A stretch of DNA of 64,000 nucleotides, taken from Rhodobacteraceae bacterium CG17_big_fil_post_rev_8_21_14_2_50_63_15 (lineage in GTDB: Bacteria > Pseudomonadota > Alphaproteobacteria > Rhodobacterales > Rhodobacteraceae). Under the pieces are notes generated by a model, which was not told the origin of the DNA, did not search any database, and saw only the letters and a list, made by a program, of their open reading frames with translations. A program made the position numbers and the translations under genes. The first letter of the stretch is position 1. Each line of letters starts with the position of its first letter. The stretch is taken from contig PFEY01000060.1 in NCBI GenBank assembly GCA_002783205.1, forward strand, positions 95,574 to 159,573, given 5' to 3'. Below are positions 2,426 to 61,057 of the stretch, piece by piece.

Positions 2426-3658
2426 ATGACGAGTGTTGCCGATCCGTCCATGATCCATCGCCGTCCGGCGCAGGCCGTCGCCGCGCCTGTCGTCTCGACG
2501 CGCGATATCCGGCTGGATTTCTTTCGTGGCCTCGCGATGTTCATCATCCTGTGCGCCCATACGCCGAACAATTTCTTTACCAACTGGATTCCCGCGCGTT
2601 GGGGTTTTTCGGATGCCACCGAGATGTTCGTCTTTTGCTCGGGGATGGCCTCGGCCATCGCCTTTGGCCGCACCTTCGATCGTGTCGGCTGGGTGCTGGG
2701 AACGGGGCGTGTCGGCTATCGGATCTGGCAGGTTTATTGGGCGCATCTCTGCATGTTCTTCGCCATCGCGACGCTGCTGGCGACCTTTGACGTCATGGGC
2801 GATTTCCAAAAGACCTATGTCGCCACGCTCAATCTGCAAAGGTTCTTTGCCGATCCCGCGCCGCAACTGGTGGGGCTGTTCACGCTGACCTATGTGCCCA
2901 ACTATTTCGACATCCTGCCGATGTATATGGTCATTCTGGCGATGATGCCGCTGATGGTCGCGCTGAGCCGGATCAGTCTCTGGATGGTGGCGCTGGCCTG
3001 CGTCCTGCTCTGGTTGTTCGCGCAGGCTGCATTGCTTGACCTGCTCGGGCTGGGGCATCTGCATCTTTCCTTTCCGGCAGAGCCCTGGTCGGATCGAACA
3101 TGGTTCTTCAACCCGTTCGGATGGCAGTTGATCTTCTTCACAGGCTTTGCCTTCATGCGCGGATGGTTGCCGAAACCACCGGTGAACCTCGGTCTGATCC
3201 TCATTGCTCTCGCGATTGTCCTTGTAAACGTGCCGCTTTCTAATATCGGTGTGCGGGAATTCGGCTTTGACTGGGCAAGGGGCTGGCGCATCGCCAATCG
3301 ACCACTGTTCAACAAATCCGATTTTGGAATTCTGAGGTATGTACATTTTCTGGCGCTTGCATATCTGTGCTGGGCTGCGGCAGGCGATGGTGGGGCTCGT
3401 CTGCGCGCCGTTGGCAGCGGCACAATCGCACATATCTGGCGAGTCGTTCTCAAGATGGTTCTGAAGGTCGGGCAGCAGTCGCTGGCGGTCTTTGTCTTTT
3501 CGATGGTGTTCGCCCGGTTCTCGGGATTCGTGATGGATCAGATCGGGCGAACCACGGGGAACATGATTTTGGCAAACTTCATCGGCTTTGGCGCGTTGAT
3601 CGTGGTGGCCTACACCGTGAGTTGGTTCAAGTCGCATCCCTGGCGGGCGGTAAAATGA
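2426..3658 (+). CDS. opgC: OpgC periplasmic glucan succinyltransferase-type membrane protein
   Basis: RDIRLDFFRGLAM, GFSDATEMFVF, FDILPMY and FNPFGWQLIF motifs; many TM segments; directly upstream of opgG/opgH. Confidence 0.9.
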   Translation: MTSVADPSMIHRRPAQAVAAPVVSTRDIRLDFFRGLAMFIILCAHTPNNFFTNWIPARWGFSDATEMFVFCSGMASAIAFGRTFDRVGWVLGTGRVGYRIWQVYWAHLCMFFAIATLLATFDVMGDFQKTYVATLNLQRFFADPAPQLVGLFTLTYVPNYFDILPMYMVILAMMPLMVALSRISLWMVALACVLLWLFAQAALLDLLGLGHLHLSFPAEPWSDRTWFFNPFGWQLIFFTGFAFMRGWLPKPPVNLGLILIALAIVLVNVPLSNIGVREFGFDWARGWRIANRPLFNKSDFGILRYVHFLALAYLCWAAAGDGGARLRAVGSGTIAHIWRVVLKMVLKVGQQSLAVFVFSMVFARFSGFVMDQIGRTTGNMILANFIGFGALIVVAYTVSWFKSHPWRAVK

Positions 3659-5160
3659 TTCGTCGGGATGTCCTGAAATCCATGACAGCTTTTGCGTTGT
3701 TGCCGTCGGTAGCCCGTGCAAATGGCGCAGCGCCATTTTCTGAGGCGGCGCTGCACGATCTCGCGCGCGAGATCGCGGCCCAGCCCTATGTCGAGCGGCC
3801 GCTTGTGCCGCAAGCCTGGCGCGATCTGACCTATGACCAGTATCGCGGGATCCGGTTTCTCACCGAGCGCGCGGTTTGGGCGGGCACCGATACGACGCTG
3901 GAATTCGACCTCTTTCCGCCCGGTCTCTACTTTGAGCATGTGGTCGAGGTCAATGTGGTCGAGGACGGTGTCGTGCGCGTCCTGCCGTTTGATTTCTCGC
4001 TCTATGATCTGCATGAGATCGTGCCCGAGTTGCCGATCGAGCCGGGTCTTGGCTATTCCGGCATCCGGCTGCGCACCGAGCTGGAAAGACCGGGATTTTT
4101 TCAGGAATATGCGGTGTTTCAGGGGGCAAGCTATTTTCGCGTGATCGCGCGCGATCTGGCCTATGGGCTGTCGGCCCGAGGGCTTGCGCTCAGGACGGCG
4201 GATCCGGAGGGTGAGGAATTTCCCGATTTCACCCGCTTCTGGATCGAGAAGCCCGCACCCGGCGCGATCTTTCACAAGGTTCATGCCCTCATGGAAAGTC
4301 CGTCGGTGACAGGACTTTACCACTTTACCCTGTTGCCGGTCGGTGAAACGACCGAGGTCGAGGTGCGCGCGACGCTCTGGCCGCGCGAGGATCTGGCAAA
4401 TGTCGGGATCGCGCCCTTGACCTCCATGTTCTTTTTCGATGAGACGAACCGGAACCGCTTTGACGATTTCCGCCCGGCGGTGCATGACAGCGACGGCCTG
4501 AGCATTCTCAATGGCAATGGCGAGCTGATCTGGCGACCGCTCGCCAATCCGCTGCAAGTGCAGGTGTCGAGCTTCATCGACAACAACCCGCAGGGCTTTG
4601 GTCTGGAACAGCGCGAGCGCAAGTTCTCGGATTTCGAGGATCTCGAGGCCCATTATCATCAGCGTCCCAGTCTCTGGGTCACGCCGGGTGAGGATTGGGG
4701 CCGGGGAGCGGTGACGCTGGTCGAGATTCCGAGCGACAAGGAAATCTATGACAATATCGTCGCCTACTGGCGGCCGCGTGATCCGCTGGTGGCGGGATCA
4801 GAGCACAGCTTTAGCTATCGGATGACATGGACGGGTCAGATCGCACCGCAGAAACCCGTGGCGCAGGTGCTCAACACCCGGATCGGCAAGGGCTTTGCGC
4901 ATAACGAAAGAAAACTCGTGGTGATCGATTTCGCCCCGCATGAAGCGCTGCCGCAGGACTATGACGATCTGGTGGTCCATGTGAATTCGAACAAGCTCGA
5001 ATTGCTGGAGGCTCAGGTCCAGCCCAACCCCGAGACCGGCGGACCGCGTCTGGTGTTTTCCTTTGATCCTGGCAAAGTGACGGTAGCGGAAATGCGCGCG
5101 CAACTGTTTCATCAGGAGCACGGCGTGTCCGAAGTCTGGCTTTACCGATGGACAGCCTGA
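3655..5160 (+). CDS. opgG: Glucan biosynthesis protein G/D (MdoG family), Tat signal
   Basis: ATGA overlap with opgC stop; MIRRDVLKS twin-arginine leader; FQGASYFR, GLSARGLA and RPAVHDSDGL motifs; G versus D paralogue not resolved. Confidence 0.88.
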   Translation: MIRRDVLKSMTAFALLPSVARANGAAPFSEAALHDLAREIAAQPYVERPLVPQAWRDLTYDQYRGIRFLTERAVWAGTDTTLEFDLFPPGLYFEHVVEVNVVEDGVVRVLPFDFSLYDLHEIVPELPIEPGLGYSGIRLRTELERPGFFQEYAVFQGASYFRVIARDLAYGLSARGLALRTADPEGEEFPDFTRFWIEKPAPGAIFHKVHALMESPSVTGLYHFTLLPVGETTEVEVRATLWPREDLANVGIAPLTSMFFFDETNRNRFDDFRPAVHDSDGLSILNGNGELIWRPLANPLQVQVSSFIDNNPQGFGLEQRERKFSDFEDLEAHYHQRPSLWVTPGEDWGRGAVTLVEIPSDKEIYDNIVAYWRPRDPLVAGSEHSFSYRMTWTGQIAPQKPVAQVLNTRIGKGFAHNERKLVVIDFAPHEALPQDYDDLVVHVNSNKLELLEAQVQPNPETGGPRLVFSFDPGKVTVAEMRAQLFHQEHGVSEVWLYRWTA

Positions 5161-7034
5161 CCCCTTTCCCCGTTGCGGGGGCCATGCCGCCACACAGTCC
5201 GTTGGACAATCCGGTTCAGGATCTCTGGCGGGCGTTTCATGATCCGAATGCACCAGGATGGCAGCGCGCCTCGCATATCTGGAGGCGGCGTGCGGCGGCC
5301 TTTCTGCCGGCTGTCCTGACCACTGGAGTGCTGGCCTGGGTCTTTGCCGATTGGCTCTCTACGGGGGGAATCTGGTGGTTGGAATGGGTTCTGCTGGCGC
5401 TTGTGGTCATGACATTCTTTTGGATCGCCCTTGCGCTTGGCACGGCAACGCTTGGCCTCTTCTGTTACATACAACGCAAACGGTCGCGGCGACGCGGTGA
5501 TCTGACTCCGCTTCGTGTGGCGCTGCTTGTGCCGATCTACAACGAGGACCCGGCTGAAGTTTTTGGCAACGCCTGCGCGATGATGTCTGCCCTGCGCCCG
5601 ACCCGATCAAGCCATCGCTTTGAGCTGTTTGTCCTCTCGGACACGCAGGATGCGGCAATCGCCATGGCGGAACAGCAAGCCTTTGAAACGCTGCGGGCGG
5701 CCCAGCCGATGGATGGTGCGGTGTGGTACCGGCGACGGGTTCAGAACATCGGGCGCAAGGTTGGCAATGTCGGTCAATGGCTGGCAAACTGGGGCGCAGC
5801 CTATGAGGCGATGATCGTTCTCGATGCCGACAGTCTCATGAGCGCGGAAGCCTTGATTGCACTGAGCGATGAAATGGCCGCGGACCCTAGCGTTGGGCTC
5901 ATCCAGTCCGCGCCGATGGTGATCGGCTCTGACACGCTGTTTGGCCGGATGCAGCAATTCTCTGCCGCGGTCTATGGCACGCTCCTCTCCGAAGGCTTGG
6001 CGGGATGGACCGGATCCGAGGGCAACTATTGGGGCCACAACGCGATCCTGCGCACTCGCGCCTTTGCCGATTGCGCCGGCTTGCCGCGGATGCCCTCCCT
6101 GCGGGGCACAGGTGGCCTGATCCTCAGTCACGATTTTGTCGAGGCGGGTCTCTTGCGGCGCGCCGGATGGGCCGTGCGATTCATGCCCTTCATCGCGGGC
6201 AGTTACGAAGAGCCTCCCGCGACGCTCATCGACTATGCCCTGCGTGATCGCCGCTGGTGCCACGGCAACCTGCAACATCTGAGTTTGTTGGGCGTGCGTG
6301 GGTTTCATGCCGTGTCACGGTTCCATCTCTTTCACGGTGCAATGAGTTATCTGCTCTCTCCCGTCTGGTTCAGTCTCCTGGTGATCTGGGCGCTCCATGG
6401 TAACGGGCCGGATAGCGTGATCCGTTACTTTTCGGACGAAAACCCGCTTTACCCCATCTGGCCGGAAATGAGCCGAGTGAGTTCCGTTCTCATTTTGCTG
6501 TTCATGTATGGGATGCTGTTGGCGCCAAAGTTGATGGGTGCCTTGGCGCTTGGCCTGACGGACGTGCGCATCGTGCGGTTTGGCGGCACTGCGCGATTTG
6601 TGCTGTCCCTGTTCACAGAGATCCTGCTCTCGGTCCTCTTTGCGCCGATCATGATGTTCCAACAGGTTGTTGCGGTTTTGCGCACGGTGATCGGCATCCG
6701 TCCGATCTGGTCGCCTCAGGCGCGCAAAGGCGGTGACTATAGCGCGTGGACTGTGCTGAAGTTTCATGCACTTGAAACCGTGAGCGGGTCGCTGCTGATG
6801 CTTGGAATGGCTGCGGGCGTGGTGTCGGTCTGGTTGCTCCCGATTGCCACCAGCCTGATTGCCGCCGTGCCGCTGTCGATGCTGTCCGGTTCTCGGCTCA
6901 GTGAGCGGCCCTTGCTGCGCCATCTCATGGCGACGCCGGATATGTTCACGCCACCGGCAATCCTGGACCTGGCACGTCTCAACCGTAATCTGTTTCGGAC
7001 AGTCCAGCAGCATCCGCCGATCGCCGCCGAATAG
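5148..7034 (+). CDS. opgH: Glucan biosynthesis glucosyltransferase H (GT2)
   Basis: PIYNEDP, RKVGN, VLDADSLM, NYWGHNAI, LSHDFVEA and RDRRWCHGN motifs. Confidence 0.95.
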   Translation: MDSLTPFPVAGAMPPHSPLDNPVQDLWRAFHDPNAPGWQRASHIWRRRAAAFLPAVLTTGVLAWVFADWLSTGGIWWLEWVLLALVVMTFFWIALALGTATLGLFCYIQRKRSRRRGDLTPLRVALLVPIYNEDPAEVFGNACAMMSALRPTRSSHRFELFVLSDTQDAAIAMAEQQAFETLRAAQPMDGAVWYRRRVQNIGRKVGNVGQWLANWGAAYEAMIVLDADSLMSAEALIALSDEMAADPSVGLIQSAPMVIGSDTLFGRMQQFSAAVYGTLLSEGLAGWTGSEGNYWGHNAILRTRAFADCAGLPRMPSLRGTGGLILSHDFVEAGLLRRAGWAVRFMPFIAGSYEEPPATLIDYALRDRRWCHGNLQHLSLLGVRGFHAVSRFHLFHGAMSYLLSPVWFSLLVIWALHGNGPDSVIRYFSDENPLYPIWPEMSRVSSVLILLFMYGMLLAPKLMGALALGLTDVRIVRFGGTARFVLSLFTEILLSVLFAPIMMFQQVVAVLRTVIGIRPIWSPQARKGGDYSAWTVLKFHALETVSGSLLMLGMAAGVVSVWLLPIATSLIAAVPLSMLSGSRLSERPLLRHLMATPDMFTPPAILDLARLNRNLFRTVQQHPPIAAE

Positions 7035-7161
7035 TCGGCGCGATGTCATCTGGCAGAGTTCAGACCAGCCGGTCCGTGGGCTCCTTTCCGGCAAAGGACG
7101 CATCGAGATTGTCCAGCGCGCGAAAGCGATTCGTTGCCATGCGTTTTGCACGTGCGAGGTT

Positions 7162-7193
7162 AATGGTTCCGCCACCAATGGTTCCGCCACCAA
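7162..7193 (+). repeat. Tandem duplication of 15-mer AATGGTTCCGCCACC
   Basis: Two exact adjacent copies at 7162-7176 and 7177-7191 followed by AA. Confidence 0.9.
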
Positions 7194-7612
7194 AGACAAG
7201 AAATTTGGTAAGAAAGTGTGATCACCTTTGCCCATTTCCGATGCAAAAGAGGCAGAACTTTACCGATCCATGGCAATCTGCCGACCATCATGGGTACCCG
7301 GATGTTTCGGTGCCATCCACAAAAGGGCACGAACAACCGCTGCGGGAAAAGGATGGTTGCGCCAGCGCGCGACCTCCGGAGATCAGACCTGGAAACGGGC
7401 CCGGCCAGCGCAAGGCGACAGGATCGGACCGTCGTCCGATCGGAATGGTGCCGGAAAGGCGAAGGTTGTGAACTTCGCGCTTTTTACATGCGGCCGGGTC
7501 GGCTATCTTTTGGCGCGCCGAGTGGGGTCTTGGAAAATGATGCGGGCCCGTTTGCACGACTCATGCCGTGATCACTTCGCGCAGGGTCAGAGACCGGGGG
7601 GAGCCGATCACC

Positions 7613-8461
7613 ATGAACCGTTCGATAGATCGACGCGCCTTTCTCGGGGCCACCATTGCCGCAACTGTGTGCGGTCCGGCACACGGGCAATCGGTGTTTC
7701 GTCTCGGGTTGACCCCTGTCTTTCTGGACAACGACGCGGCCGTTATCGACGGACTGCGGCGGGCGCTTTCCCGCGGGATGGCGCGTGAGATCGAACTGGT
7801 CCAGCGGCGGACATATCAGGAGATCACGGGTATGCTTCTGGAGCGGTCCGTCGATGGCGCCTGGCTGTGTGGCTATCCCTATCTGCAACATGCCGATACG
7901 CTGCAACTGGTAACCGTGCCGATCTGGCGCGGCGGGCCTCTCTATCAGTCCTATCTGATCGTGGGGGCAGAAGATGCCGCAACCGAACTGGCTGATCTGC
8001 GGGGCGGGACCCATGCGTTCTCCGACCCGGATTCCAATTCGGGTTATCTTGTCACGGCAACCGATCTTCGCCGAAGGGGCGAGCGGCCTGAGACTTTCTT
8101 CAGCCGCTCGATCTTTACATATGGTCATCGTAATGTGGTGCGGGCGGTGGCGGATGGGCTGGTGCAATCCGGCAGCGTGGATGGCTATGTCTGGGAGGCG
8201 CTGGCGCAGATCGAGCCGGAGTTGACCGCGAACACGCGAGTCATCGGAAAATCTGAATGGCTTGGTTTTCCGCCAATCTGCGCACGCCGGGATGGGTTTG
8301 CATCCGAACCGGTGCAGGCCTTGCGGGCGGCCCTTTTGGAGATGAATACAACAGATGAGGGCCAGCAGGCGCTGTCCGCCCTGCAATTGGACGGGTTCGC
8401 TGATGCACCTGCCGCGCTGTTCGACGGGATCGCGGCAAGAATGCGCGATCTGGAGCAGTGA
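7613..8461 (+). CDS. aioX: Periplasmic arsenite-binding protein AioX (PhnD-like), Tat signal
   Basis: DRRAFLG leader; AWLCGYPY carrying the conserved As(III)-binding Cys; DPDSNSG motif; first gene of aioXSR. Confidence 0.9.
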   Translation: MNRSIDRRAFLGATIAATVCGPAHGQSVFRLGLTPVFLDNDAAVIDGLRRALSRGMAREIELVQRRTYQEITGMLLERSVDGAWLCGYPYLQHADTLQLVTVPIWRGGPLYQSYLIVGAEDAATELADLRGGTHAFSDPDSNSGYLVTATDLRRRGERPETFFSRSIFTYGHRNVVRAVADGLVQSGSVDGYVWEALAQIEPELTANTRVIGKSEWLGFPPICARRDGFASEPVQALRAALLEMNTTDEGQQALSALQLDGFADAPAALFDGIAARMRDLEQ

Positions 8462-8464
8462 TTC

Positions 8465-9895
8465 ATGCCGACACTGACTCGACTTCCTTTGTCTCTAAAG
8501 CTGCCGCTTCTGGCCGCGGCGATGATGGTTCTGGTGGGAGCGGTCGCGTCTCAACAGGTGCTGCGCGCTCTGGCCCGCGTTCAGGATGAGCGCGTACAGG
8601 AACTGGCGCAGATGCATGTCGAAGGTTTGTCGGTCGCGCTCGGCCCGTTGGTCCTGCGTCGCGATATCTGGGAGGTCTATGATACGCTCGACCGGGCATC
8701 ACAAAGCAGCGAAGGGCGCCGGATGATCCTGACCGCCGTAGCAGACGAGGCCGGGCGCGTTCTTGCGGCGACCGATCCGCGCCGTGTCCCCGTGGATAGC
8801 TCAATTGCCGATTTCGCCGGCAGCGCGGACGGCTTGGACGCTCTTTCGGTGAGCAGAGCGAAACCCATTCTGCGACTGATTGCACCGCTCGACTATCAGG
8901 GTCGAACGGTTGGCCAGATCGTGTCAGAGCTGGATGTCTCCGATCTGCTGAGTGAACGCCGAGAGGCGCTGATCTTGCTGATCCTCGGCAATGCCCTGGC
9001 CATCGGGGTTCTGGCCCTGGCGGGGTATCTTGCCATTCGAAAGATGTTGGGGCCCGTGTCGGTTCTGGCCCGCCAGATGACCGAAACAAAGGGCGAACCT
9101 CATCCGATTGCGACGACTGAGATCCCGAAGGGTGATGGTGAGCTGGCCCGTCTTGCGCGCATCTACAACACGATGGTGGGTGCGGTTGCCGCCAAGGCCG
9201 AGGCCGAACGACGGCTTGCAGAACGCGAACGCTTTGTCGCGCTCGGACGCTTGTCGTCCTCGCTGGCGCACGAGATCAACAACCCATTGGGCGGACTCCT
9301 GAACGTCACGGATACGATCCGCAACTTTCCGGATCGACCGGATGTCGTGCGTCAGTCAGCCGACCTGCTCGATCGGGGCCTGCGCCATCTGCGCGATGTA
9401 ACCCGGGCAACCTTGGACCTCAACAGGGTGGACGCCGAAGGCCGGCATCTGCGGTCTGCCGATTTTGACGATCTGAAGTTACTGATCCAGCCCGAAACAT
9501 CGCGGCGGACTCAAGATCTGGACTGGTCTGTTTGTCTGCCCGACGATGGCGCGGTTCCCTTTGCGGCGGGTCCGATACGTCAGATTTCCCTGAACCTGCT
9601 TCTGAATGCCGCCGCCGCCGCCGGATATGGGGGACGAGTTGGCCTTAAGGCAGAAACGCAAGACCGCAGCCTGACCATCGAGATCAGTGATACCGGAGAG
9701 GGAATGCCGCGCGCCGCGCTGGATCGCCTGCTGACGGATGAACCACTCAATCCCGGTGGCGGCGTCGGGTTGAGACTGGTTCGCGAACTGACCCTTAGCC
9801 TTGGTGGCCGGATTGTGCATGAGCGGGCAGACGGACAGACGCGTGTCACCGTTACGATCAGGCAAGAGCAAGGGGCGTTCCATGCTCAAGGGTAG
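8465..9895 (+). CDS. aioS: Sensor histidine kinase AioS
   Basis: Two TM segments, HAMP-like region, H-box AHEINNPLGG, DTGEG and GGGVGL boxes; lies between aioX and aioR. Confidence 0.9.
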   Translation: MPTLTRLPLSLKLPLLAAAMMVLVGAVASQQVLRALARVQDERVQELAQMHVEGLSVALGPLVLRRDIWEVYDTLDRASQSSEGRRMILTAVADEAGRVLAATDPRRVPVDSSIADFAGSADGLDALSVSRAKPILRLIAPLDYQGRTVGQIVSELDVSDLLSERREALILLILGNALAIGVLALAGYLAIRKMLGPVSVLARQMTETKGEPHPIATTEIPKGDGELARLARIYNTMVGAVAAKAEAERRLAERERFVALGRLSSSLAHEINNPLGGLLNVTDTIRNFPDRPDVVRQSADLLDRGLRHLRDVTRATLDLNRVDAEGRHLRSADFDDLKLLIQPETSRRTQDLDWSVCLPDDGAVPFAAGPIRQISLNLLLNAAAAAGYGGRVGLKAETQDRSLTIEISDTGEGMPRAALDRLLTDEPLNPGGGVGLRLVRELTLSLGGRIVHERADGQTRVTVTIRQEQGAFHAQG

Positions 9896-11111
9896 ACGGA
9901 TTGTGCTGGTTGAGGACGACGAGATCATGGGGGCGTCGCTCTTGCAACGGCTCGAACTCGAAGGCGCACAGGTTCTTTGGCACAAGCAGATGTTTCGGGC
10001 GCTTGGTGCGATCCGCACGCCAAGCCAGGCGATCGACGCCGTGATCTGTGACATCGGTCTGCCTGACGGATCCGGGGAAGAGCTGTTTGCCACCCTGATG
10101 CGCACCGGGACACCGCCTCCGTTCCTGTTCATTACGGGTCAGGGCGGGATCGTTCAGGCCGTTCGTCTGATCAAATCGGGGGCGGCGGACTATGTCACAA
10201 AACCCTTTGACATGGCGGTCTTTTTGGAACGGCTCAGCCTTCTGGTCTCGCCGAAATCGGAACTTGGTTTTCCACTCCTCATGGGGGTTTCTCCGGCAGC
10301 ATCGCGAATCGAAGCACTGATTGCGCATGCTGCGGCAGAAGACAATTCGGTCCTGATCCGTGGTGGACCCGGAACCGGAAAGGATCTTGTCGCCCGGCGA
10401 ATCCACGACATGTCGGATCGCCAGGCTGCACCCTTCGTCGCCGTCAATCTGGCGCGGGAAGACGACGCCGGACTTGCCCTGTTTGGTTCCGAGCGAGGTT
10501 TCAACGTTGTCGGCGACGGCACGCTCTTCATAAATGCCATCAATCGGTTGCCCGGAGACGTTCAGGGCCGCTTGCTGGCCCGGCTCGATCTGGGCTTTGA
10601 AGGGCGTCTGATCACGGCCTGCGGCAATGACCTCGATGGTTCGATCGATGAGCGACCCTTCAATCCCGAACTCCTCTACCGATTGGGTCAAATTGTAATC
10701 CCTGTCCCGCCTCTGACGACGCGGCCCGACGACGCTGTCTGGCTGCTTCAGCAACTGTTCCACAAGCTTGCTCCAAAGCTCGCCCCCAGCCTTGAGGGCA
10801 TCGGTGCCCTGTGTGAAGCCGCCGCCCGGGGGCACGACTGGTCGGGCGGGGGGCGTGAAGTGCGAGCCCGACTGGTGCGGGGCCTCGCCATGGCGTCCGG
10901 TCCGTTGCTGCAACCGTCCGACCTGTTCCCCGAACATCTCGCCAGATCTGACGAGATGATGTCGCTTGTCGAGGCACGCGAGATGGCCGAGAAGGCGCAG
11001 ATCATTGCGGCTCTTGATCGGACGGGGGGACAGATCGGCGAATCGGCAAGGCTTCTCCGTATCGCGCGCACGACTCTCTGGGAAAAGATGCAGAAATTCG
11101 GCCTGTCCTGA
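9882..11111 (+). CDS. aioR: Response regulator AioR (receiver, degenerate AAA+ domain, Fis HTH)
   Basis: VLVEDD/ICDIGLPD receiver; Walker A GGPGTGKD; C-terminal ARLLRIARTTLWEKM HTH; start placed at ATG 9882. Confidence 0.88.
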   Translation: MLKGRRIVLVEDDEIMGASLLQRLELEGAQVLWHKQMFRALGAIRTPSQAIDAVICDIGLPDGSGEELFATLMRTGTPPPFLFITGQGGIVQAVRLIKSGAADYVTKPFDMAVFLERLSLLVSPKSELGFPLLMGVSPAASRIEALIAHAAAEDNSVLIRGGPGTGKDLVARRIHDMSDRQAAPFVAVNLAREDDAGLALFGSERGFNVVGDGTLFINAINRLPGDVQGRLLARLDLGFEGRLITACGNDLDGSIDERPFNPELLYRLGQIVIPVPPLTTRPDDAVWLLQQLFHKLAPKLAPSLEGIGALCEAAARGHDWSGGGREVRARLVRGLAMASGPLLQPSDLFPEHLARSDEMMSLVEAREMAEKAQIIAALDRTGGQIGESARLLRIARTTLWEKMQKFGLS

Positions 11112-11127
11112 GCACCACATCGAGTGA

Positions 11128-11153
11128 CAGATGTTCGGATTTCCGAACATCTG
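11128..11153. promoter_or_regulatory. Perfect inverted repeat containing an AioR-box-like GTTCG-N6-CGAAC
   Basis: CAGATGTTCGGA-TT-TCCGAACATCTG about 130 bp upstream of aioB; core fits the GT[CT]CG-N6-CG[AG]AC AioR site as I recall it; could also act as a hairpin ending the aioR transcript. Confidence 0.6.
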
Positions 11154-11281
11154 AATTTGATAAATAGAATCATCAATTTACGCCGATGCGGCGGGCTGAT
11201 CGCACCATCGCTCCGCCCTGCTTCATCGCTTATTGTGACAGATGTATTCAACACGTGAAGACCTAGGGAGGGTTCTATCCG

Positions 11282-11800
11282 ATGAAGTGCAATCGATTGG
11301 TTGACGCCGGGCGCCGACAGTTTCTGAGAGGCAGTCTCATGGCGACAGCCGGAGCTGCCGCCGCGACCGTCATCGCCCCAGAGAAAGCCAGCGCCGAGGC
11401 TTTGGCGCGCGTGGACTTTCCACAAAACCGTTTGGCAAACATCTCCGACCTCGCGGTAAACGAGCCGATGGATATTGCCTATCCCGATGCCGATAGCCCG
11501 GGCGTGCTTCTCAAGCTGGGTCAGGCGGTTGAAGGCGGGGTCGGTCCGGATGGCGATGTGGTCGCATTTTCGGTGCTGTGCCCGCACAAGGGCTGGATGC
11601 TGAGCTATTCGGCCGCGGACAAGACATTGAACTGCCCCGGCCATCATTCGCGCTTTGACTGTGAGACTGGCGGCCAGCAGACCTGGGGTCATGCGACGCA
11701 GAATCTGCCGCAATTCATGCTGAGCGTCGACGAAAAAGGCGACATTTACGCAAATGGTGTGGACGATCTGATCTACGGCCGTCTGTCGAACGTGCTCTGA
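11282..11800 (+). CDS. aioB: Arsenite oxidase small (Rieske) subunit
   Basis: GRRQFLRG Tat leader; Rieske ligands CPHKG...CPGH without the disulfide cysteines; GHATQNLPQ. Confidence 0.97.
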   Translation: MKCNRLVDAGRRQFLRGSLMATAGAAAATVIAPEKASAEALARVDFPQNRLANISDLAVNEPMDIAYPDADSPGVLLKLGQAVEGGVGPDGDVVAFSVLCPHKGWMLSYSAADKTLNCPGHHSRFDCETGGQQTWGHATQNLPQFMLSVDEKGDIYANGVDDLIYGRLSNVL

Positions 11801-11814
11801 GGGAGAAACAACAA

Positions 11815-14280
11815 ATGGCTTTCAAAAGACAAGTCGATCGTCTGCCGATCATTCCCGCAGACGCAAAGGAACATAACGTCACCTGCCACTACTGCATCGT
11901 CGGGTGCGGCTACAAGGCCTACACCTGGCCGATCCAGACGCAGGGACATTCGGCTCCGGACGGCAACAAGTTCGGTGTTGACCTTAGTGAACAGCAACCC
12001 ATGGAAACCGAAGCCTGGTATGCACCGTCGATGTATAACGTCGTGCGCCAGAACGGCCAGGACGTCCATCTGGTCGTCATGCCGGACGTGAACTGTGTCG
12101 TGAACTCGGGACTTGGCTCGATCCGCGGTGCGCGCATGGCCGAGAACCGCCCTTCCAGGGTGACAGGCACACAGCAGCAGCGCCTGTCCGACCCGCTGGT
12201 GTGGCGCAACGGTGTGTGGCAGCCGACTTCCTGGGACGATGCGCTCGATCTCGTGGCGCGGGTCACCGCACGGGTGATCACCGAAGGCTCCGAGGACGAT
12301 CTCGTGGTGTCGATGTTCGACCACGGCGGCAGCGCGGGCGGCTATGAGAACACCTGGGCCACCGGCAAGCTCTATTTCGAGAGCATGAAAGTCAAGAATG
12401 CCCGCATTCACAACCGCCCGGCCTACAACTCCGAGGTCCATTCGACGCGCGACATGGGCATCGGTGAACTGAACTACTCCTACAGTGATTACGAGGTCAC
12501 GGACACGATCTTCATGGTCGGTGCCAACTCGATGGAAACGCAGACGAACCTCTACCTCAACCACATGGTTCCGGGGTTTCGGAATGGTGCGAAATTCATC
12601 GCCGTCGATCCGCGCCGCACCATCACCATCGCTTCTTCCGAACAATATGCGGGCAAGGACAACGTGCTGCATCTGGCGATCAAGGAGGGCACGGACATGG
12701 CGCTCTTCAACGCCATCCTGACTCATATCGTTGACAATGGCTGGGTCGACGCCGACTTCATTGCGAATTCCACCTTTCAAGGCGGCGTCGCGACGGCGGA
12801 AGATGAGGCGCACCCGGCAAGCCTGGGCAGCCTTGATCACGCGATGGCGACCTGCCGCACGTCGCTCGAGCAGGCGGCGGAAATCTGCGGGGTGGATGCG
12901 GCGGATATCGCCAAGGCCGCCGAGTGGATTGCCAAGCCCAAGGACGATGGCAGCGCCCGCAAATGCGTCACGGCCTATGAGAAAGGCATCATCTGGGGCA
13001 ATGACAACTACCGCACCATCGGTGCGCTGGTGAACATTGCACTTGCAACTGGGAACGTCGGCCGTGAAGGCAGCGGGATCTGCCGTCTCGGCGGCCACCA
13101 GGAAGGTTACTACCGGCCGTCTGACGCACATGTCGGTCGTCCGGCAGAGTATGTCGATCAGTTCCTGATCCGGGGACTGGGGGGCGTGCATCACATCTGG
13201 GCCTGCGACCATTACAAGACGACGATCAACGCCTCAGAGTTCAAGCGGGTGCACAAACGTCGCTCCGACATGGTCAAGGCTGCCATCGACGAAGCGGCAG
13301 GCGGTACGCGTGAGCAGGTGGTCGATGCCATTGTTTCGGCAATCAACGCCGGCGGTCTGTTCGTGGTGGACGTGGACATCATCCACAGCCAGATCGGTCA
13401 GAATGCCCACGTGGTCCTGCCCGCCTGTGAATCGAACGAGATGAACCTCACGTCGATGAACGGCGAGCGGCGCCTGCGGCTGTCCGAACGTTACATGGAT
13501 CCTTATGGCAACTCGAAACCCGATTGCCTGATCGCTGCCGGCATCGCACAGAACATGGAACGTGTTCTGCGCGCGATCGGGCAAGACGCCTATGCCGACC
13601 AGTTCAAGGGCTATGACTGGGCGAGCGAGGAAGACGCCTTCATGGACGGCTACAACAAGGGCAATCCTGAAGTGACCTATGAGCGCCTGCGCGCGATGGG
13701 CAACAACGGGGTGCAGGAGCCGGTCGTGGGCTTTGCCGATGGCAAGCTTGTCGGCACCGAAAGGCTCTATGCCGATGGCACCTTCGATCGGCATGGACGC
13801 GACGACAAGAAGGCCTTGTTCTGCGCGGCGGGCTGGCGCGGCTGGCAGGCGCCGGGCAAGGCGCGCGAGCAGGCGTCGCACCGGTTCTGGATCAACAACG
13901 TGCGCGCCAACATCTTCTGGCAGAATCAGTTCCTCGATCAGAAGAACGACTTCATCCAGGACCGCTATCCTCATCCGTTTGTCGAGATGCATCCAGACGA
14001 CATGGTGGAACTCGGGCTCAACCCCGGAGACCTTCTGGAAATCGTCAATGACAATGGCGTGACCCAGGGCATGGCCTATCCCATGCCGACGCTCAAGCGC
14101 GACACCGTTGCGATGGTTTTCGGAGCACCGGCGGGCAGTCAGGGCAACGTGGTCAACCCAGGCGTGAACGAGCTGGTGTTGCCGGATTACAAGCACTGCT
14201 GGGGGTCCATACGCAAGATTGCGGATGCAACCGCCCAAACGCGCAGCATCTCGTTCAAGGCGCATGAAGCCGTCCTGTAA
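11815..14280 (+). CDS. aioA: Arsenite oxidase large molybdopterin subunit
   Basis: CHYCIVGCGY [3Fe-4S] motif; HNRPAYNSE substrate-site motif; FDHGGSAGGYENTW; 821 aa. Confidence 0.98.
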   Translation: MAFKRQVDRLPIIPADAKEHNVTCHYCIVGCGYKAYTWPIQTQGHSAPDGNKFGVDLSEQQPMETEAWYAPSMYNVVRQNGQDVHLVVMPDVNCVVNSGLGSIRGARMAENRPSRVTGTQQQRLSDPLVWRNGVWQPTSWDDALDLVARVTARVITEGSEDDLVVSMFDHGGSAGGYENTWATGKLYFESMKVKNARIHNRPAYNSEVHSTRDMGIGELNYSYSDYEVTDTIFMVGANSMETQTNLYLNHMVPGFRNGAKFIAVDPRRTITIASSEQYAGKDNVLHLAIKEGTDMALFNAILTHIVDNGWVDADFIANSTFQGGVATAEDEAHPASLGSLDHAMATCRTSLEQAAEICGVDAADIAKAAEWIAKPKDDGSARKCVTAYEKGIIWGNDNYRTIGALVNIALATGNVGREGSGICRLGGHQEGYYRPSDAHVGRPAEYVDQFLIRGLGGVHHIWACDHYKTTINASEFKRVHKRRSDMVKAAIDEAAGGTREQVVDAIVSAINAGGLFVVDVDIIHSQIGQNAHVVLPACESNEMNLTSMNGERRLRLSERYMDPYGNSKPDCLIAAGIAQNMERVLRAIGQDAYADQFKGYDWASEEDAFMDGYNKGNPEVTYERLRAMGNNGVQEPVVGFADGKLVGTERLYADGTFDRHGRDDKKALFCAAGWRGWQAPGKAREQASHRFWINNVRANIFWQNQFLDQKNDFIQDRYPHPFVEMHPDDMVELGLNPGDLLEIVNDNGVTQGMAYPMPTLKRDTVAMVFGAPAGSQGNVVNPGVNELVLPDYKHCWGSIRKIADATAQTRSISFKAHEAVL

Positions 14281-14292
14281 GCCAAACTGATG

Positions 14293-14324
14293 GGCCCGCC
14301 CCCACGAAAGGGGGCGGGCCTTTT
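14293..14324 (+). terminator. Intrinsic terminator after aioA
   Basis: GGCCCGCCCCC-ACGAAA-GGGGGCGGGCC followed by TTTT. Confidence 0.8.
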
Positions 14325-14339
14325 CCTTGGGGGGAGATC

Positions 14340-15584
14340 ATGGCTGATACTGCAAGATGTTCCGCCGGCAAGCCCGGCGCTGCCTTGTCTGTGGACGCCG
14401 CACGTTTGCGGGCCATCGCCGTTGCGCGCCCGGTGGAACAAGAAACTCTGGCCCTCGTCTCAGCGGTTGGCCGGGTGCTTGCTGCGCCAGTCTTTGCTAA
14501 TTCGCCTCTACCGCCCTTCGACAACTCCGCCATGGATGGCTATGCCGTGTCTCTTGCCGATCTTTCTGGCGAGGGCCCCTGGGATGTGCCAGTCACCCTG
14601 CGCATTGCCGCAGGTGACAGCAGGGGACTGACCCTTGCACAGGGCGAGGCGGCACAGGTCTTTACAGGTGCACCGGTTCCAAAGGGGGCCGACGCCGTGG
14701 TCATGCAGGAAAACGTCACTCGTCTGGGGGATCGGATCACCTTTTTCCTTCGTCCGCAATCCGGCCAGAACATTCGCCGTAGGGGCGAAGATGTGCAGAT
14801 CCGAGGACGGGCTCTTGCGGTCGGTGTGGAGCTGACACCACCGCGCCTTGCCTTGCTGGCGGGCTGTGGTGTCACGGATGTCGCTGTGCACCGGCGGGTT
14901 CGCATTGCCATGTTTTCCACCGGCGACGAGCTCGTGGAACCCGGAGGAGATCTTGCCCCCGGACAGATTTACAATTCCAACCGGATCATGCTGGGCGCGC
15001 TTATGGACCGTCGGTGGGCCGATGTCACGGATCTGGGAATCTTGCGCGACAATCCCGCCCGTGTTCGGGCTGCTATCCGCGAGGCGGCGCAAAGCCATGA
15101 TGTCGTGATTTCCTCGGGCGGCGTCTCTGCTGGTGAGGAAGATCACATCCTTGACGCCTTGCGGGCTGAAAACGCCCGGCTTGATATCCTGAAGGTCGCC
15201 ATCCGTCCCGGCAAGCCGCTCACTGTCGGCCGCGTGGCGGATGCTCTGTTCTTCGGTCTGCCCGGTAATCCCTATGCCGCAGCGATCACGTTCTCCCAGA
15301 TCGTTCGTCCCGCCTTGCGTCGTGTGGCAGGGCTCTGTGAAGATCCTGATATCTGGATCCCGGCGGTCTCTGGGTTTTCCTACACCCGCAGCGCTGGTCG
15401 CCGCGAATTTGTTCCCGTCACTTGGTCGCAGCGAGACCAGATCGGTCGCCCGGTTCTGGAAAGGCTGGGCCGAGGGGCCTCTGCCAGCCTCTATCCGATA
15501 GCGCAGGCACAAGGCATAGCGGTCCTGCCACCGGAGATCGCGAACATCTTGCCGGGTATGCCGCTGCGCGTCGAGCCCATTTAG
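14340..15584 (+). CDS. moeA: Molybdopterin molybdotransferase
   Basis: PPFDNSAMDGYA, FSTGDEL, SGGVSAG and KPLTVG...FGLPGNP motifs. Confidence 0.95.
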   Translation: MADTARCSAGKPGAALSVDAARLRAIAVARPVEQETLALVSAVGRVLAAPVFANSPLPPFDNSAMDGYAVSLADLSGEGPWDVPVTLRIAAGDSRGLTLAQGEAAQVFTGAPVPKGADAVVMQENVTRLGDRITFFLRPQSGQNIRRRGEDVQIRGRALAVGVELTPPRLALLAGCGVTDVAVHRRVRIAMFSTGDELVEPGGDLAPGQIYNSNRIMLGALMDRRWADVTDLGILRDNPARVRAAIREAAQSHDVVISSGGVSAGEEDHILDALRAENARLDILKVAIRPGKPLTVGRVADALFFGLPGNPYAAAITFSQIVRPALRRVAGLCEDPDIWIPAVSGFSYTRSAGRREFVPVTWSQRDQIGRPVLERLGRGASASLYPIAQAQGIAVLPPEIANILPGMPLRVEPI

Positions 15585-15685
15585 GGCGAGATCGGTTCTG
15601 TCAGGTTATGACTGCGCCACCAAGGGTATCGGGCAAAGGCCACTGGAAAACTGTCCCCGCCATCCGAACGGGTTGTGGGGTCGTG

Positions 15686-16450
15686 TCAGGCAACCAGCCT
15701 GCCGAGATCGGCGGCGGCTTCGCGCATCGCTCCAAGATAGTTCAGTGCGCGTTCGATACTGAACCTCCGGGTCGGCGCGTGACAGGCGAGCGTTGCCATC
15801 AGCCGCGCGCTCGGATCAAGGACTGGCACGGCAATTGCAATCATGTCATCCATGAATTCCTCACGGTCGAGGGAATAGCCCTGCGCCCGCACCTGCTCGA
15901 TTTCGGCCAACAGCGCATCCGGGTCGGTCAGTGTGTTGCGCGTCCTTGCTCTTAGATCGGTTGCGCTGACATAGCCCTTCAGGTGACGCTGCGGCAGTGT
16001 GCTGAGATACAACTTGCCGCTGGCGGTGCAATAGAGCGGCACGCGCGTCCCGATTGGCAATTGGATTCGTAGCGGCCATTCGGTCTCGACTCGTTCGAGA
16101 TAGATCATCGCATCCCCGTCCGGCAGCGTGATGTTGCAGGTTTCGCCAATCCCGAGGCTAAGACGTTTCAGGATCGTTTGACGCGCCGTGCGGACCCACA
16201 GCGAAGACAGAACACCACCTGCCAGTGTCCGCAAGCGCGGTCCCGTTGAATAGCTGCGCCCATCGAGCTCGCGCTGCAGAAACCCCTCCTCCTCGAGTGT
16301 GGCAAAGAGCCGGTGGATGGTCGGCTTGGGCAGGCCGAGCACAGCGTTAACCTCTGTCGGCGTGATCGGAACGCCCAGGCGCGCAACCGCTTCAATCACC
16401 AACAGCAGGCGCATGGTCGTGGGGATCGTCGCTGCACCCTCGCCATCCAT
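15686..16450 (-). CDS. iseR: IclR-family regulator, probably IseR
   Basis: GLPKPTIHRL HTH and PLYCTASGK effector domain; symbol from synteny with the roseobacter isethionate cluster. Confidence 0.7.
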   Translation of the reverse strand: MDGEGAATIPTTMRLLLVIEAVARLGVPITPTEVNAVLGLPKPTIHRLFATLEEEGFLQRELDGRSYSTGPRLRTLAGGVLSSLWVRTARQTILKRLSLGIGETCNITLPDGDAMIYLERVETEWPLRIQLPIGTRVPLYCTASGKLYLSTLPQRHLKGYVSATDLRARTRNTLTDPDALLAEIEQVRAQGYSLDREEFMDDMIAIAVPVLDPSARLMATLACHAPTRRFSIERALNYLGAMREAAADLGRLVA

Positions 16451-26650: not shown

Positions 26651-26910
26651 TTTTAGTGGGCGCGCTCACCTCAGCCCTTGCCGTCCGAGCGCGGTGTGTT
26701 CGGGTCCGCGATGCCCCGCTATCTGTCTGTCGTGAGGCATCACGGCTGGGTGCCCCTCGACCGCCTTGCGACGCGTTCGGCGGTCCAAACGGGCCAGCGG
26801 GGCCCATCCCTGCGCCATGGTCGAGACGTTCACCAATCCTTCGCTTTGCTCACCCCGATTGTCGTTTCTTCAGGCAAACAGGTCCGGCCGAAATCCCTCC
26901 CTCAGGTCCC

Positions 26911-55872: not shown

Positions 55873-56775
55873 TTACGCGGCGACTCCTTCCTGCTGTTCG
55901 GTTTGCTGTTGAAAACCATGCAGAAAATCCGCTGCCTTTTGGGCGTGTGCTGCGGCGCTGAAGATCGCGCGCTTGTCGTTCCGCAGAACCTTGAGCCAGC
56001 TTTGAATATAGGCGGCGTGATCGGTGCCAGGTTCTGGCGTCAGGGCAAGATCGGCGCAGAGGAACGCCGCGCCAAGCTCGGCAACAAGTTCCTCACGGGC
56101 GTATCCTTCATCGCCCCATGACTTGCGTCCGAATTCACGGTCAAGGCGTTTGGGGTGCTTCGTCCAGTGGGTCAGCTCGTGGGCAAGGGTCGCATAGTAG
56201 GCTTCGGGGCTGCGGAAGCTCTCGAAAAACGGCATCTGCACGTGATCGCTGCCGCCGCTGTAGTAAGCCCTGTTCCCGCCGTTGCGGATGTCGGCACGGG
56301 TGGCGGCAAAGAACGCCTCGGCATGCTCGATCCGCTCCGCGCCATCGATCACAGGCTCGGGCTTGCGGTAGAAATGTTCGGGCAAGCCATCGATCTGTTC
56401 GACGTTGAAAACGCTGTAGCCCTTCATGAACGGGATTTTCCGCTCTTCGGCGCTGCCGTCGTCCTGCTCTTCGGTCTTGGTGATGGTGTTGGCATAGACA
56501 ACGAGGTTGCCGCGCTCGCCCTTGCGGACATGCGCCCCGAATTCTGCTGCTTGGCGGTAGGTCATCCAGAACGGGGAAATATAACCGCCTTCCATCGCCG
56601 CGCCCCACAGCATCAGCACGTTGATTCCGCTGTAGGGCATGCCGTTGTGCCGTAGGGGCTTGATGATCCGCCCTTCGGTGTTTGCGGCGCTCCATGGCTT
56701 CAGCCATGTCAGTTCGCCTTGCTCCAGATCGGCAATGATCTTGTCGGTCACTTTCTGGTAAATGTCTTGTTTCAT
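55873..56775 (-). CDS. ardC: ArdC antirestriction protein (ssDNA-binding N-domain plus zincin-like domain)
   Basis: DIYQKVTDKII..LE.G...W.KPW, YSGINVLML, WMTYRQA, VFNVEQ, HELTHW and YAREELVAE; start at ATG 56775. Confidence 0.92.
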   Translation of the reverse strand: MKQDIYQKVTDKIIADLEQGELTWLKPWSAANTEGRIIKPLRHNGMPYSGINVLMLWGAAMEGGYISPFWMTYRQAAEFGAHVRKGERGNLVVYANTITKTEEQDDGSAEERKIPFMKGYSVFNVEQIDGLPEHFYRKPEPVIDGAERIEHAEAFFAATRADIRNGGNRAYYSGGSDHVQMPFFESFRSPEAYYATLAHELTHWTKHPKRLDREFGRKSWGDEGYAREELVAELGAAFLCADLALTPEPGTDHAAYIQSWLKVLRNDKRAIFSAAAHAQKAADFLHGFQQQTEQQEGVAA

Positions 56776-56849
56776 TGTCTTTTTCCCTTCATTGGATAGT
56801 CGGTTGCACATGCAACCGAGCTAGGCGCGCGCCAATGAGCGGGGGGGGT

Positions 56850-56980
56850 GCGGTCAAGACCCGCGCGGCGTGAGGGGGATCACCCGCCCTGCACAAATGA
56901 AATGCGGAAGGACGGGGATACGCGCCGCGCGCGCCCGAAAGGGCGTTCAGGTCTTGATGGCTGGGGGCCGCAAGCCCCTT
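56850..56980 (-). promoter_or_regulatory. Multi-hairpin structured leader upstream of ardC
   Basis: TCAAGACC/GGTCTTGA (56854-61/56950-57), GCGCGGCG/CGCCGCGC (56863-70/56923-30), CGCCC-GAAA-GGGCG and GGGGC-CGCAA-GCCCC; TTGACC on the ardC strand. Confidence 0.5.
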
Positions 56981-57182
56981 TAACTTTGGGAAATAGAGTC
57001 AGCCCGACGAGGCTGTCAGTATTCTGTCTTCACGCGAGGGATCGAAGCCGAACGGCCGAAACCGCTTGGGTTCGGTTCATGAGAGCCGGCTCCGAAGGAC
57101 GCGCTCAGATTAAACCACGTAATAGTGAAGCTTCACCGACTTGAAAAGGCGGCAAAATACTCGAAAGCTTATGCATATGTCG

Positions 57183-61000: not shown

Positions 61001-61057
61001 CAGATAGTCTTTCGAGAATTTATTTAACGTGTTTTATTGCGCGCACTAGGTGGATTC

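Follow-up and report, generated by a model that had tools for sequence, protein, structure and literature searches.

How can an arsenite-oxidase operon be controlled by an enhancer-binding protein that no longer carries the loops with which such proteins engage sigma-54? The question is raised by the regulator AioR encoded in a 64,000-nt (nucleotide) stretch of contig PFEY01000060.1, hereafter the window, whose positions serve as coordinates throughout. The source is an aquifer/groundwater metagenome population of the order Rhodobacterales, the nearest species-level genomes being a Frigidibacter metagenome-assembled genome (MAG; 81%) and 'CG_2015' Rhodobacterales MAGs (78%). A complete arsenite-oxidase locus lies on the + strand in the order aioX-aioS-aioR-aioB-aioA-moeA/glp. 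The answer we favor, with a probability of roughly two in three, is that this locus encodes an AioXSR arsenite (As(III)) sensor whose output regulator became an atypical, sigma-54-independent enhancer-binding protein.

Loss of the sigma-54 machinery from AioR

Window AioR is encoded directly after aioX-aioS and before aioBA, an order common to nearly all of 80 related loci, and its start at 9882 (MLKGRR...) creates a 14-nt overlap with aioS that recurs in homologous annotated loci. Its closest characterised relative is AioR of Pseudorhizobium banfieldiae NT-26 (40% identity, E = 3e-81); synteny, nearest relatives and the DNA box described below identify it as AioR. We aligned the protein to canonical AioR of NT-26, Agrobacterium tumefaciens and Bosea, and to Aquifex NtrC1 and Brucella NtrX from the PDB. 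The family-wide comparison covers 85 usable variant AioR loci recovered from PLSDB and GTDB scans. The coding sequence contains the following features:

9882..11111, + strand: variant aioR, 409 residues comprising a receiver (REC) domain, a degenerate AAA+ domain, a lid and a Fis-type helix-turn-helix (HTH), assigned by Pfam
10047..10067, + strand: receiver phospho-acceptor region CDIGLPD (Asp57), with the Asp invariant in 85/85 variants and in canonical AioR
10362..10385, + strand: intact Walker A GGPGTGKD, residues 161-168, with GxxGxGK kept in 84/85 variants
10485..10511, + strand: L1 remnant GSERGFNVV (...ALFGSERGFNVVGDG), residues 202-210, from which 12 residues including GAFTGA are gone
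10524..10541, + strand: degenerate Walker B LFINAI, residues 215-220, with Asn218-Ala219 in place of Asp-Glu (canonical, LFLDEI)
10587..10604, + strand: deletion site DL/GFEG of L2, the pre-sensor-I insertion, with 12 residues gone at the junction L237/G238 and the deletion present in 85/85 variants
10839..10862, + strand: sensor II WSGGGREV, residues 320-327, with Arg325 kept (canonical, WPGN[AV]REL; Arg in 84/85 variants)
10986..11102, + strand: Fis-type HTH DNA-binding domain (Pfam HTH_8, 3.4e-11)

The REC, AAA+ and Fis-type HTH architecture is borne out by Pfam (Response_reg, Sigma54_activat and HTH_8) and by AlphaFold/Foldseek. The Sigma54_activat match, however, spans 140 residues against 166 profile positions and reaches only 68 bits, and the AAA_lid_14 match of 22.6 bits falls under its cutoff of 27. 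A first-pass annotation of this DNA had reported an intact Walker A, a deleted GAFTGA, LFINAI and WSGGGREV, and every one of these strings was verified in the open reading frame 9882-11111 (+). The alignment to characterised AioR that it called for places a 12-residue gap exactly at GAFTGA in L1 and reveals a second gap of 12 residues, at L2, that it had missed; both are seen relative to NtrC1 as well as to canonical AioR. These two loops are specific to enhancer-binding proteins, which use them to engage sigma-54. L1 is shortened in 85/85 variants, with the F-T dipeptide in none, and the Walker B Asp-Glu pair is kept in 0/85, its place being taken by NA (31), NG (16), HG/HA (12), QA (7) and others. 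This pattern, common to 85/85 relatives, far exceeds chance. In window AioR, the sensor I region is also altered and the first Arg of the FRxDLxxRL arginine-finger region is Asn (FNPELLYRL). Thus, of the hallmarks of a sigma-54 enhancer-binding protein, GAFTGA, L2, the Walker B Asp-Glu pair and a -24/-12 target are all absent from the window regulator and its promoter. The HTH residues RTTLWEKM are invariant across variant and canonical AioR.

An AlphaFold model of AioR built from 30 family members has a predicted local distance difference test score of 82, with most of the AAA+ core at 85-93, and its AAA+ domain superposes on PspF at ~2.3 Å. The best full-length Foldseek matches of the model are NtrX (5m7p, the top match), NtrC1, NtrC4, LuxO, VpsR (7v2b) and FleQ. 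As modelled, the AAA+ fold is retained and the sigma-54 machinery is lost. The retention of Walker A and the sensor II Arg, together with the loss of the Walker B Asp-Glu pair, sensor I and, in part, the arginine fingers, fits nucleotide binding without hydrolysis. Window AioR would then bind ATP without hydrolysing it, and its AAA+ domain would probably serve ATP-dependent oligomerisation or polymerase contact, not remodelling.

A conserved aioB promoter without a -24/-12 element

The aioR-aioB intergenic region contains the following features, some of which are placed relative to a predicted transcription start site (TSS) or compared with sites where integration host factor (IHF) binds:

11128..11153, + strand: AioR box, an extended 12+12 palindrome CAGATGTTCGGA-TT-TCCGAACATCTG, centred at ~-102 from the predicted TSS
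11154..11180, + strand: A/T-rich tract ending in a tentative IHF-like site AATCATCAATTTA (11168-11180), centred at ~-69
11208..11213, + strand: weak element TCGCTC at the -35 position, with a 17-nt spacer to the -10, a weakly conserved TCG and 2/6 matches to TTGACA
11231..11236, + strand: predicted -10 hexamer TATTGT, with TAnnnT at the aligned column in 74/75 promoters; predicted TSS ~11243
11265..11272, + strand: aioB Shine-Dalgarno sequence AGGGAGGG, conserved in the alignment

We scored sigma-54 promoters by the number of matches, out of 11, to TGGCAC-N5-TTGCW. Between 11112 and 11281 of the window the best match is 7/11 (CGGCGGGCTGATCGCA at 11189), the level of shuffled sequence, which agrees with the earlier remark that no convincing sigma-54 box precedes aioB. 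Across 81 distinct variant intergenic regions, the mean best score is 6.93/11 versus 7.05 for shuffles, and a conserved GG-N10-GC column is missing. Scores at canonical loci are 9-11 of 11: the NT-26 aioB promoter (TGGCACAACGATTGCA), a published RpoN promoter (PMC6011840), is an 11/11 match, and that of A. tumefaciens (TGGCACAGCTATTGCA) matches TGGCAC-N5-TTGCA at 11/11. The regulators of Bosea, Acuticoccus, Hydrogenophaga and Sulfuricella (arx) carry GAF[TS]GA and LFLDE[IV], and 6/6 regulators with GAF[TS]GA (five beside aioBA and one arx-type) pair with a GG-N10-GC located 51-62 nt before the start codon of the adjacent oxidase operon; for three of them other than NT-26 and A. tumefaciens, this distance is 51-54 nt.

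Seventy-five distinct variant promoters could be aligned by anchoring them on the AioR box. The informative columns of this alignment are the box, CA and TT in the A/T tract, a weak TCG, the near-invariant TAnnnT and the Shine-Dalgarno sequence. Among the TAnnnT hexamers, TATCCT and TACCCT occur most often, and 28/75 promoters also have the TGn of an extended -10. The distance from box centre to hexamer is 89-92 nt (standard deviation 0.9) in 74/74, and that from hexamer to ATG is 35-52 nt (standard deviation 5.4). A sigma-70-like hexamer held in register with the box, and not with the coding sequence, fits an activator-dependent promoter of the sigma-70 family. We call this promoter because of comparative conservation only, and the hexamer position yields the predicted TSS at ~11243 and the box centre at ~-102. 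The sigma-54-independent control of aioBA proposed in the first-pass annotation is thus supported, at the level of sequence, by the 81 shuffle-like promoters, by TAnnnT in 74/75 and by the pairing of GG-N10-GC with GAF[TS]GA regulators; we infer both 'ATPase-dead' for the regulator and 'sigma-70' for its promoter. A class II promoter adjoining the box (TAGAAT at 11165) was considered and rejected, its column not being conserved.

Upstream, the box core GTTCGGATTTCCGAAC at 11133-11148, with the pattern GTTCGG-N4-CCGAAC, is the sole perfect match in the 64 kb. It equals the AioR site GT[CT]CG-N6-CG[GA]AC predicted by Andres et al. for Rhizobiales (PMC3673622), and the AioR box lies 132-151 nt before the aioB ATG. 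The core pattern matches 76/82 variant aioB promoters as well as the canonical ones, and the remaining six variants differ by one base; canonical and variant promoters carry one common AioR box. Past the box, A+T content is 65-69% over 30 nt, versus 30-40% farther on, and the core CAR-N4-TTR occurs at one fixed position in 24/75 promoters, compared with 2.5 in shuffled segments and 0-2 in control windows. IHF binding or an intrinsic bend in this spacer is plausible. Taken as a whole, regulator and promoter suggest that the target promoter switched in step with AioR, from the sigma-54 to the sigma-70 type, with the upstream binding site unchanged.

Several smaller elements occur in or resemble this region. 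An 11-nt direct repeat GTGACAGATGT, at 11124-11134 and 11235-11245, flanks the left arm of the box and recurs over the predicted -10 and TSS; the related promoters inspected lack it at the -10, and it may have arisen by local duplication or by chance. Another small palindrome, CGCCG-ATG-CGGCG at 11181-11193, occupies a fixed position of ~-55 to -60 in some of the variant promoters. Its form in relatives, TGCCGC-N3-4-GCGGCA, is found in 13/75 by strict pattern and in more by eye; carriers include loci L003, L004, L009, L010, L058 and L063, and an A/T-rich marine subgroup lacks it. In a subgroup of closest relatives (L009, L011, L012, L020, L022 and L088), the stretch from the predicted -10 to the Shine-Dalgarno sequence contains the palindrome CAYCAnTTGRTGA, which is missing from the window; a related sequence gives a spurious 10/11 sigma-54 match in L024. 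A sequence resembling the AioR box with one mismatch, GTTCGGCGGTCCAAAC at 26775-26790 (+), is probably fortuitous (0.25 expected at one mismatch or fewer).

An old and clade-wide state

Variant AioR is not peculiar to the window. In a protein search, more than 120 clusters with lengths of 383-416 residues matched at no less than 59% identity, and those named by organism are nearly all Rhodobacterales, such as Roseovarius sp. 217, Lutimaribacter, Thioclava, Thalassovita, Phaeobacter and Marinovum. The 85 loci, in which identity falls as low as 43%, add Paracoccus seriniphilus, Rhodobacter sp. CZR27 and SW2, Neotabrizicola, Cereibacter azotoformans and Pseudosulfitobacter. The few carriers outside the order are Roseibium aquae (L021), Stappia sp. 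(L023) and a Pannonibacter MAG (L083). These Stappiaceae (Hyphomicrobiales) bear the variant regulator together with the TAnnnT promoter, which suggests that the regulator-promoter pair moves horizontally as a unit.

In neighbour-joining trees, the variants are monophyletic with bootstraps of 50/50 for the AAA+ domain and 49/50 for REC, and the full-length tree places them as sister to the canonical AioR of Hyphomicrobiales. The attachment of the variant AAA+ domain alone is recovered in only 11/50 bootstraps, so that its origin could lie in decay in place or in an ancient replacement by the domain of another atypical enhancer-binding protein. Among close pairs, the ratio of nonsynonymous to synonymous substitution rates (dN/dS) is 0.045 for REC, 0.147 for AAA+, 0.104 for the lid and 0.054 for the HTH; mean pairwise identity is 0.50 in the AAA+ domain versus 0.28 in the linker. 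The AAA+ domain is relaxed yet clearly under selection. The first-pass annotation had read the rewiring as something that happened in this organism. The loss it described is real, but judged from these comparisons it is an old trait of the whole clade (85/85), mostly Rhodobacterales, maintained under purifying selection.

Two loci depart from the common arrangement. The AioR of L006 (Pseudosulfitobacter pseudonitzschiae plasmid) is the most divergent variant, with 43% identity and an 8-residue L1 deletion, and an IS3-family transposase at L006 6258-7638 is inserted between the AioR box and aioB, parting the activator site from the core promoter. In L005 (Cereibacter azotoformans pORIO3, 2705-11230), a GAFTGA-less X-S-R module lies upstream not of aioBA but of an arx-type operon that encodes a 4Fe-4S protein, a molybdopterin oxidoreductase, a second 4Fe-4S protein and NrfD; its intergenic region contains two AioR-type boxes and a TACCAT hexamer.

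A model for arsenite-responsive control of aioBA

The genes around aioR supply the remaining parts of a sensory pathway and its output:

7568..8461, + strand: aioX, periplasmic As(III)-binding protein with a PhnD/phosphonate-binding fold (Pfam Phosphonate-bd, 3.5e-46; positioned as the annotated aioX of NT-26 and A. tumefaciens)
8465..9895, + strand: aioS, sensor histidine kinase with HisKA and HATPase_c (Pfam; synteny with aioS of L001 and L002)
11282..11800, + strand: aioB, Rieske subunit of arsenite oxidase (TIGR02694, 192 bits, cutoff 96)
11815..14280, + strand: aioA, molybdopterin subunit of arsenite oxidase (TIGR02693, 1080 bits)
14340..15584, + strand: moeA/glp, molybdopterin molybdotransferase (Pfam MoeA_N, MoCF_biosynth and MoeA_C; downstream of aioBA in NT-26 too)

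We propose that AioX would bind As(III) and that AioS would in turn phosphorylate AioR at Asp57. Phosphorylated AioR, as a dimer or higher oligomer, would bind GTTCGGATTTCCGAAC centred ~102 bp upstream of the aioB start site. An A/T-rich and possibly IHF-bound bend would then bring it to RNA polymerase carrying a sigma-70-family factor and seated on the promoter formed by the weak -35 and the TAnnnT -10 (TATTGT, 11231-11236), so that aioBA, and probably moeA too, would be switched on. The data show the sequence states with their conservation and selection, the common box, the lack of -24/-12, the phased TAnnnT and the in-situ transcripts; in this scheme we infer which sigma factor takes part, where transcription starts, that AioR activates rather than represses, and what ATP and IHF do.

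In its broadest form, which we regard as an evenly balanced proposition, the clade would illustrate the way in which an enhancer-binding protein changes sigma class. The upstream site, the ~90-nt distance (kept within 2 nt) and a bendable A/T spacer would have been conserved, the core promoter would have passed from -24/-12 to -10/-35, and the ring would have lost L1, L2 and catalysis. An ATP-binding, hydrolysis-dead AAA+ oligomer would thereby activate sigma-70 polymerase by looping from -100, as a portable regulator-promoter module that would also work in Roseibium, Stappia and Pannonibacter.

Expression in situ and the occurrence of rpoN

Four aquifer metatranscriptome runs contain contigs over aioB and aioA, between 11315 and 14094, at 95-100% identity, those listed being mostly identical. 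Over 7000-15800, almost no RNA contigs fall on aioXSR and the intergenic region (7000-11300) or on moeA. The arsenite oxidase operon is thus transcribed in situ, from a point between the end of aioR and 11315. The low signal of aioXSR agrees with the low constitutive expression reported for these genes in NT-26 (PMC6011840).

Neither an additional enhancer-binding protein nor any GAFTGA is present in the window, and tblastn with Escherichia coli RpoN gave no rpoN match in the window or in 1.1 Mb of related loci, a result that has no bearing on the rest of the genome. The notion that Rhodobacterales are generally without rpoN is not borne out by the list of Francke et al., and the proposed model does not depend on rpoN being absent. 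The sole zero-mismatch sigma-54 consensus in the 64 kb, TGGCACGGCAATTGCA at 15824-15839 (+), falls within the 3' part of an IclR-family regulator gene (15686-16450, -), to which it is antisense, with no + strand gene after it; ~0.06 such matches are expected by chance, and chance is its probable origin.

Alternative explanations

It is unlikely, though this reading survives best among the alternatives, that AioR acts as co-activator of an alternative sigma-70-family factor, RpoH-like or of the extracytoplasmic function type such as RpoE2, and not with the housekeeping sigma. The -35 position shows only a weak TCG, the alphaproteobacterial RpoH-type -10 approximates CTATNT where the commonest hexamer context here is GCTATCCT, and the aioXSR genes of NT-26 have an RpoE2 promoter (PMC6011840). 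No GGAAC-N16-17-CGTT or CTTG -35 column is conserved, however, and TAnnnT, accompanied by TGn in 28/75, is typical of promoters of group-1 sigma factors.

We assign a small probability to a variant AioR that works mainly as a repressor or anti-activator, in the manner of NtrX at its own promoter or FleQ at pel, and holds the sigma-70 promoter off until phosphorylated. Repression needs no ATP hydrolysis, some atypical enhancer-binding proteins such as NtrX do repress (PMC6158489), and for NT-26, repression of motility genes by unphosphorylated AioR has been put forward (PMC3673622). Against this, a box centred ~90 nt upstream of the -10 is too far away for occlusion, the strict phasing of box and -10 combined with a poor -35 is the signature of an activator-dependent promoter, and in canonical systems the homologous box serves as an upstream activating sequence.

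That AioR is a decaying relic, with aioBA constitutive or otherwise controlled, appears very unlikely. Catalytic AAA+ residues are gone, the AAA+ domain evolves ~3x faster than REC and the HTH, aioXSR transcripts are barely seen in situ while those of aioBA are, and a sigma-70 consensus scan finds no strong promoter. A vestigial relic would nevertheless not be expected to show an AAA+ dN/dS of 0.147, that is, about 0.15 and not ~1. The same state persists across 85 loci as divergent as 43% identity, the Asp, Walker A, the sensor II Arg and the HTH being intact, the AioR box is retained at a distance to the -10 fixed within 2 nt, aioXSR-aioBA synteny is near universal, and low constitutive expression of aioXSR is normal in NT-26 (PMC6011840).

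It is highly improbable that control still depends on sigma-54, with variant AioR reaching the polymerase at a divergent -24/-12 promoter by a non-canonical contact or in concert with another enhancer-binding protein that is ATPase-proficient: NCBI does annotate family members as 'sigma-54-dependent', some Rhodobacterales encode sigma-54, L024 has its 10/11 match and Li et al. (2013) report palindromes and -24/-12 elements in all 12 aioXSR-linked operons, from strains including Rhodobacter sp. SW2 (PMC3834237), but 85/85 have a dead Walker B and have lost L1 and L2, beyond which no sigma-54 contact surface is known, promoter scores equal those of shuffles with no conserved GG-N10-GC column, SW2 (L063) itself is without GAFTGA and has Walker B LFLNAL and a best score of 7/11, the L024 match sits where its closest relatives have the 5'-untranslated palindrome and is not common to them, and Francke et al. 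treat GAFTGA-less homologues as non-sigma-54 (PMC3162934).

The preferred reading, a sigma-54-independent activator acting with a sigma-70-family polymerase, has to be set against several observations that weigh on the other side. The window promoter matches TTGACA-17-TATAAT at 6/12 positions and has no TGn, and a simple sigma-70 consensus scan of 11000-11400 gives no match; TAnnnT could be recognised by another sigma-70-family factor, or could be something other than a -10. The single AioR box corresponds to one dimer site, whereas R. capsulatus NtrC needs tandem sites, and the IHF consensus WATCAR-N4-TTR in its strict form is found in 7/75 promoters only. The 85 sequences share one ancestral event, so that their counts are not independent. 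The RNA contigs start at 11315 or later, are unstranded and may contain some DNA, and no 5' end can be read from them. Finally, sigma-54 is present in some Rhodobacterales, namely P. denitrificans and R. pomeroyi (Francke et al., PMC3162934).

Other features of the window

Apart from the arsenite-oxidase locus, the GC content falls from ~60% to 46% at 55873-63982. Four - strand genes lie there: one for an anti-restriction protein resembling ArdC (55873-56811), one for a UvrD-type helicase (57183-59042), one for an ATPase with AAA_15/AAA_21 and OLD-TOPRIM (59039-61000) and one for the R subunit of a type I restriction system (61058-63982). The helicase and ATPase pair resembles Gabija-like GajB/GajA, and the region looks like a horizontally acquired defence island.

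Implications

This reading contradicts the published generalisation that aioXSR-linked aioBA operons are RpoN-dependent. Both the label 'sigma-54-dependent transcriptional regulator' attached by annotation pipelines and the RpoN model given in reviews appear wrong for arsenite oxidisers of the Rhodobacterales type, which are widespread in marine, saline-lake, hot-spring and aquifer settings. Arsenite biosensors and expression studies built on AioR and the aioB promoter from variant organisms should not need the rpoN of the host. More generally, the clade lends itself to a clean natural comparison on the passage of enhancer-binding proteins between sigma-54 and sigma-70, since sensor, DNA box and promoter geometry are common to the sister groups, which differ only in AAA+ loops, catalytic residues and core promoter.

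Comparison with known systems

Our search of the accessible literature library found no paper that links AioR to the loss of GAFTGA or discusses AioR of Rhodobacterales. Canonical AioR, as known from NT-26, A. tumefaciens 5A/GW4 and Herminiimonas arsenicoxydans, shares with the window the gene order aioX-aioS-aioR-aioB-aioA(-moeA), the receiver and the HTH, with ~40% identity along the whole protein, as well as a GT[CT]CG-N6-CG[GA]AC site placed ~90-100 bp before the start site, with an A-rich spacer after it. It differs in possessing GAFTGA, L2, LFLDEI and WPGN.REL and in driving TGGCAC-N5-TTGCA promoters; all of these are missing from window AioR and its promoter, which has TAnnnT instead. 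The RpoN dependence of the canonical systems has been shown experimentally in A. tumefaciens and H. arsenicoxydans (PMC6011840, PMC3673622, PMC3834237).

The first-pass annotation had chosen NtrX as its analogue, and this comparison does not hold well. Brucella and Caulobacter NtrX also lack GAFTGA, and NtrX is the best Foldseek match (5m7p), but it keeps a Walker B LYLDEV, shows no deletion of the L2 region in pairwise alignment and represses its own promoter (PMC6158489). Window AioR scores 133 bits against the NCBIfam NtrX equivalog cutoff of 600, which it does not reach. VpsR, R. capsulatus NtrC and HupR are closer analogues.

VpsR of Vibrio cholerae has no GAFTGA, reads ND at Walker B and has no ATPase activity, and it activates sigma-70 polymerase (PMC6158489). 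It resembles window AioR in being an enhancer-binding protein of atypical kind in which GAFTGA is missing and the Walker B Asp-Glu pair is replaced, and it is a structural match (7v2b). Unlike window AioR, it needs cyclic di-GMP (c-di-GMP) instead of phosphorylation and binds near -35 rather than at ~-100, and the two share only 21% identity.

HupR of R. capsulatus belongs to a different orthologous group, takes H2 as its signal and is reportedly active when unphosphorylated. Its hupSL promoter reportedly has the layout that we propose here, with a palindrome upstream, an IHF site and a sigma-70 core. HupR is a GAFTGA-less regulator of the NtrC family that acts with sigma-70 (PMC3162934, PMC6158489).

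R. capsulatus NtrC, which is without L1, acts on sigma-70 polymerase as an activator from distant upstream sites; it has to be phosphorylated and to bind ATP, whereas hydrolysis is dispensable (Bowman & Kranz 1998, cited in bioRxiv 10.1101/2023.06.06.543975). It comes from the same order as window AioR and shares its REC-AAA+-HTH architecture and the deletion of L1/GAFTGA; Walker A is kept in window AioR too. It belongs to another orthologous group, window AioR scoring 128 bits against the NCBIfam ntrC cutoff of 559, and it uses tandem sites in place of one palindrome. Hsieh et al. list TyrR, HupR, HsfA, PhhR, NtrX and VpsR as atypical enhancer-binding proteins (PMC6158489). On the best reading of its sequence, window AioR belongs with this set and with R. 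capsulatus NtrC, and the type of mechanism we propose for it has precedents in the same bacterial order.

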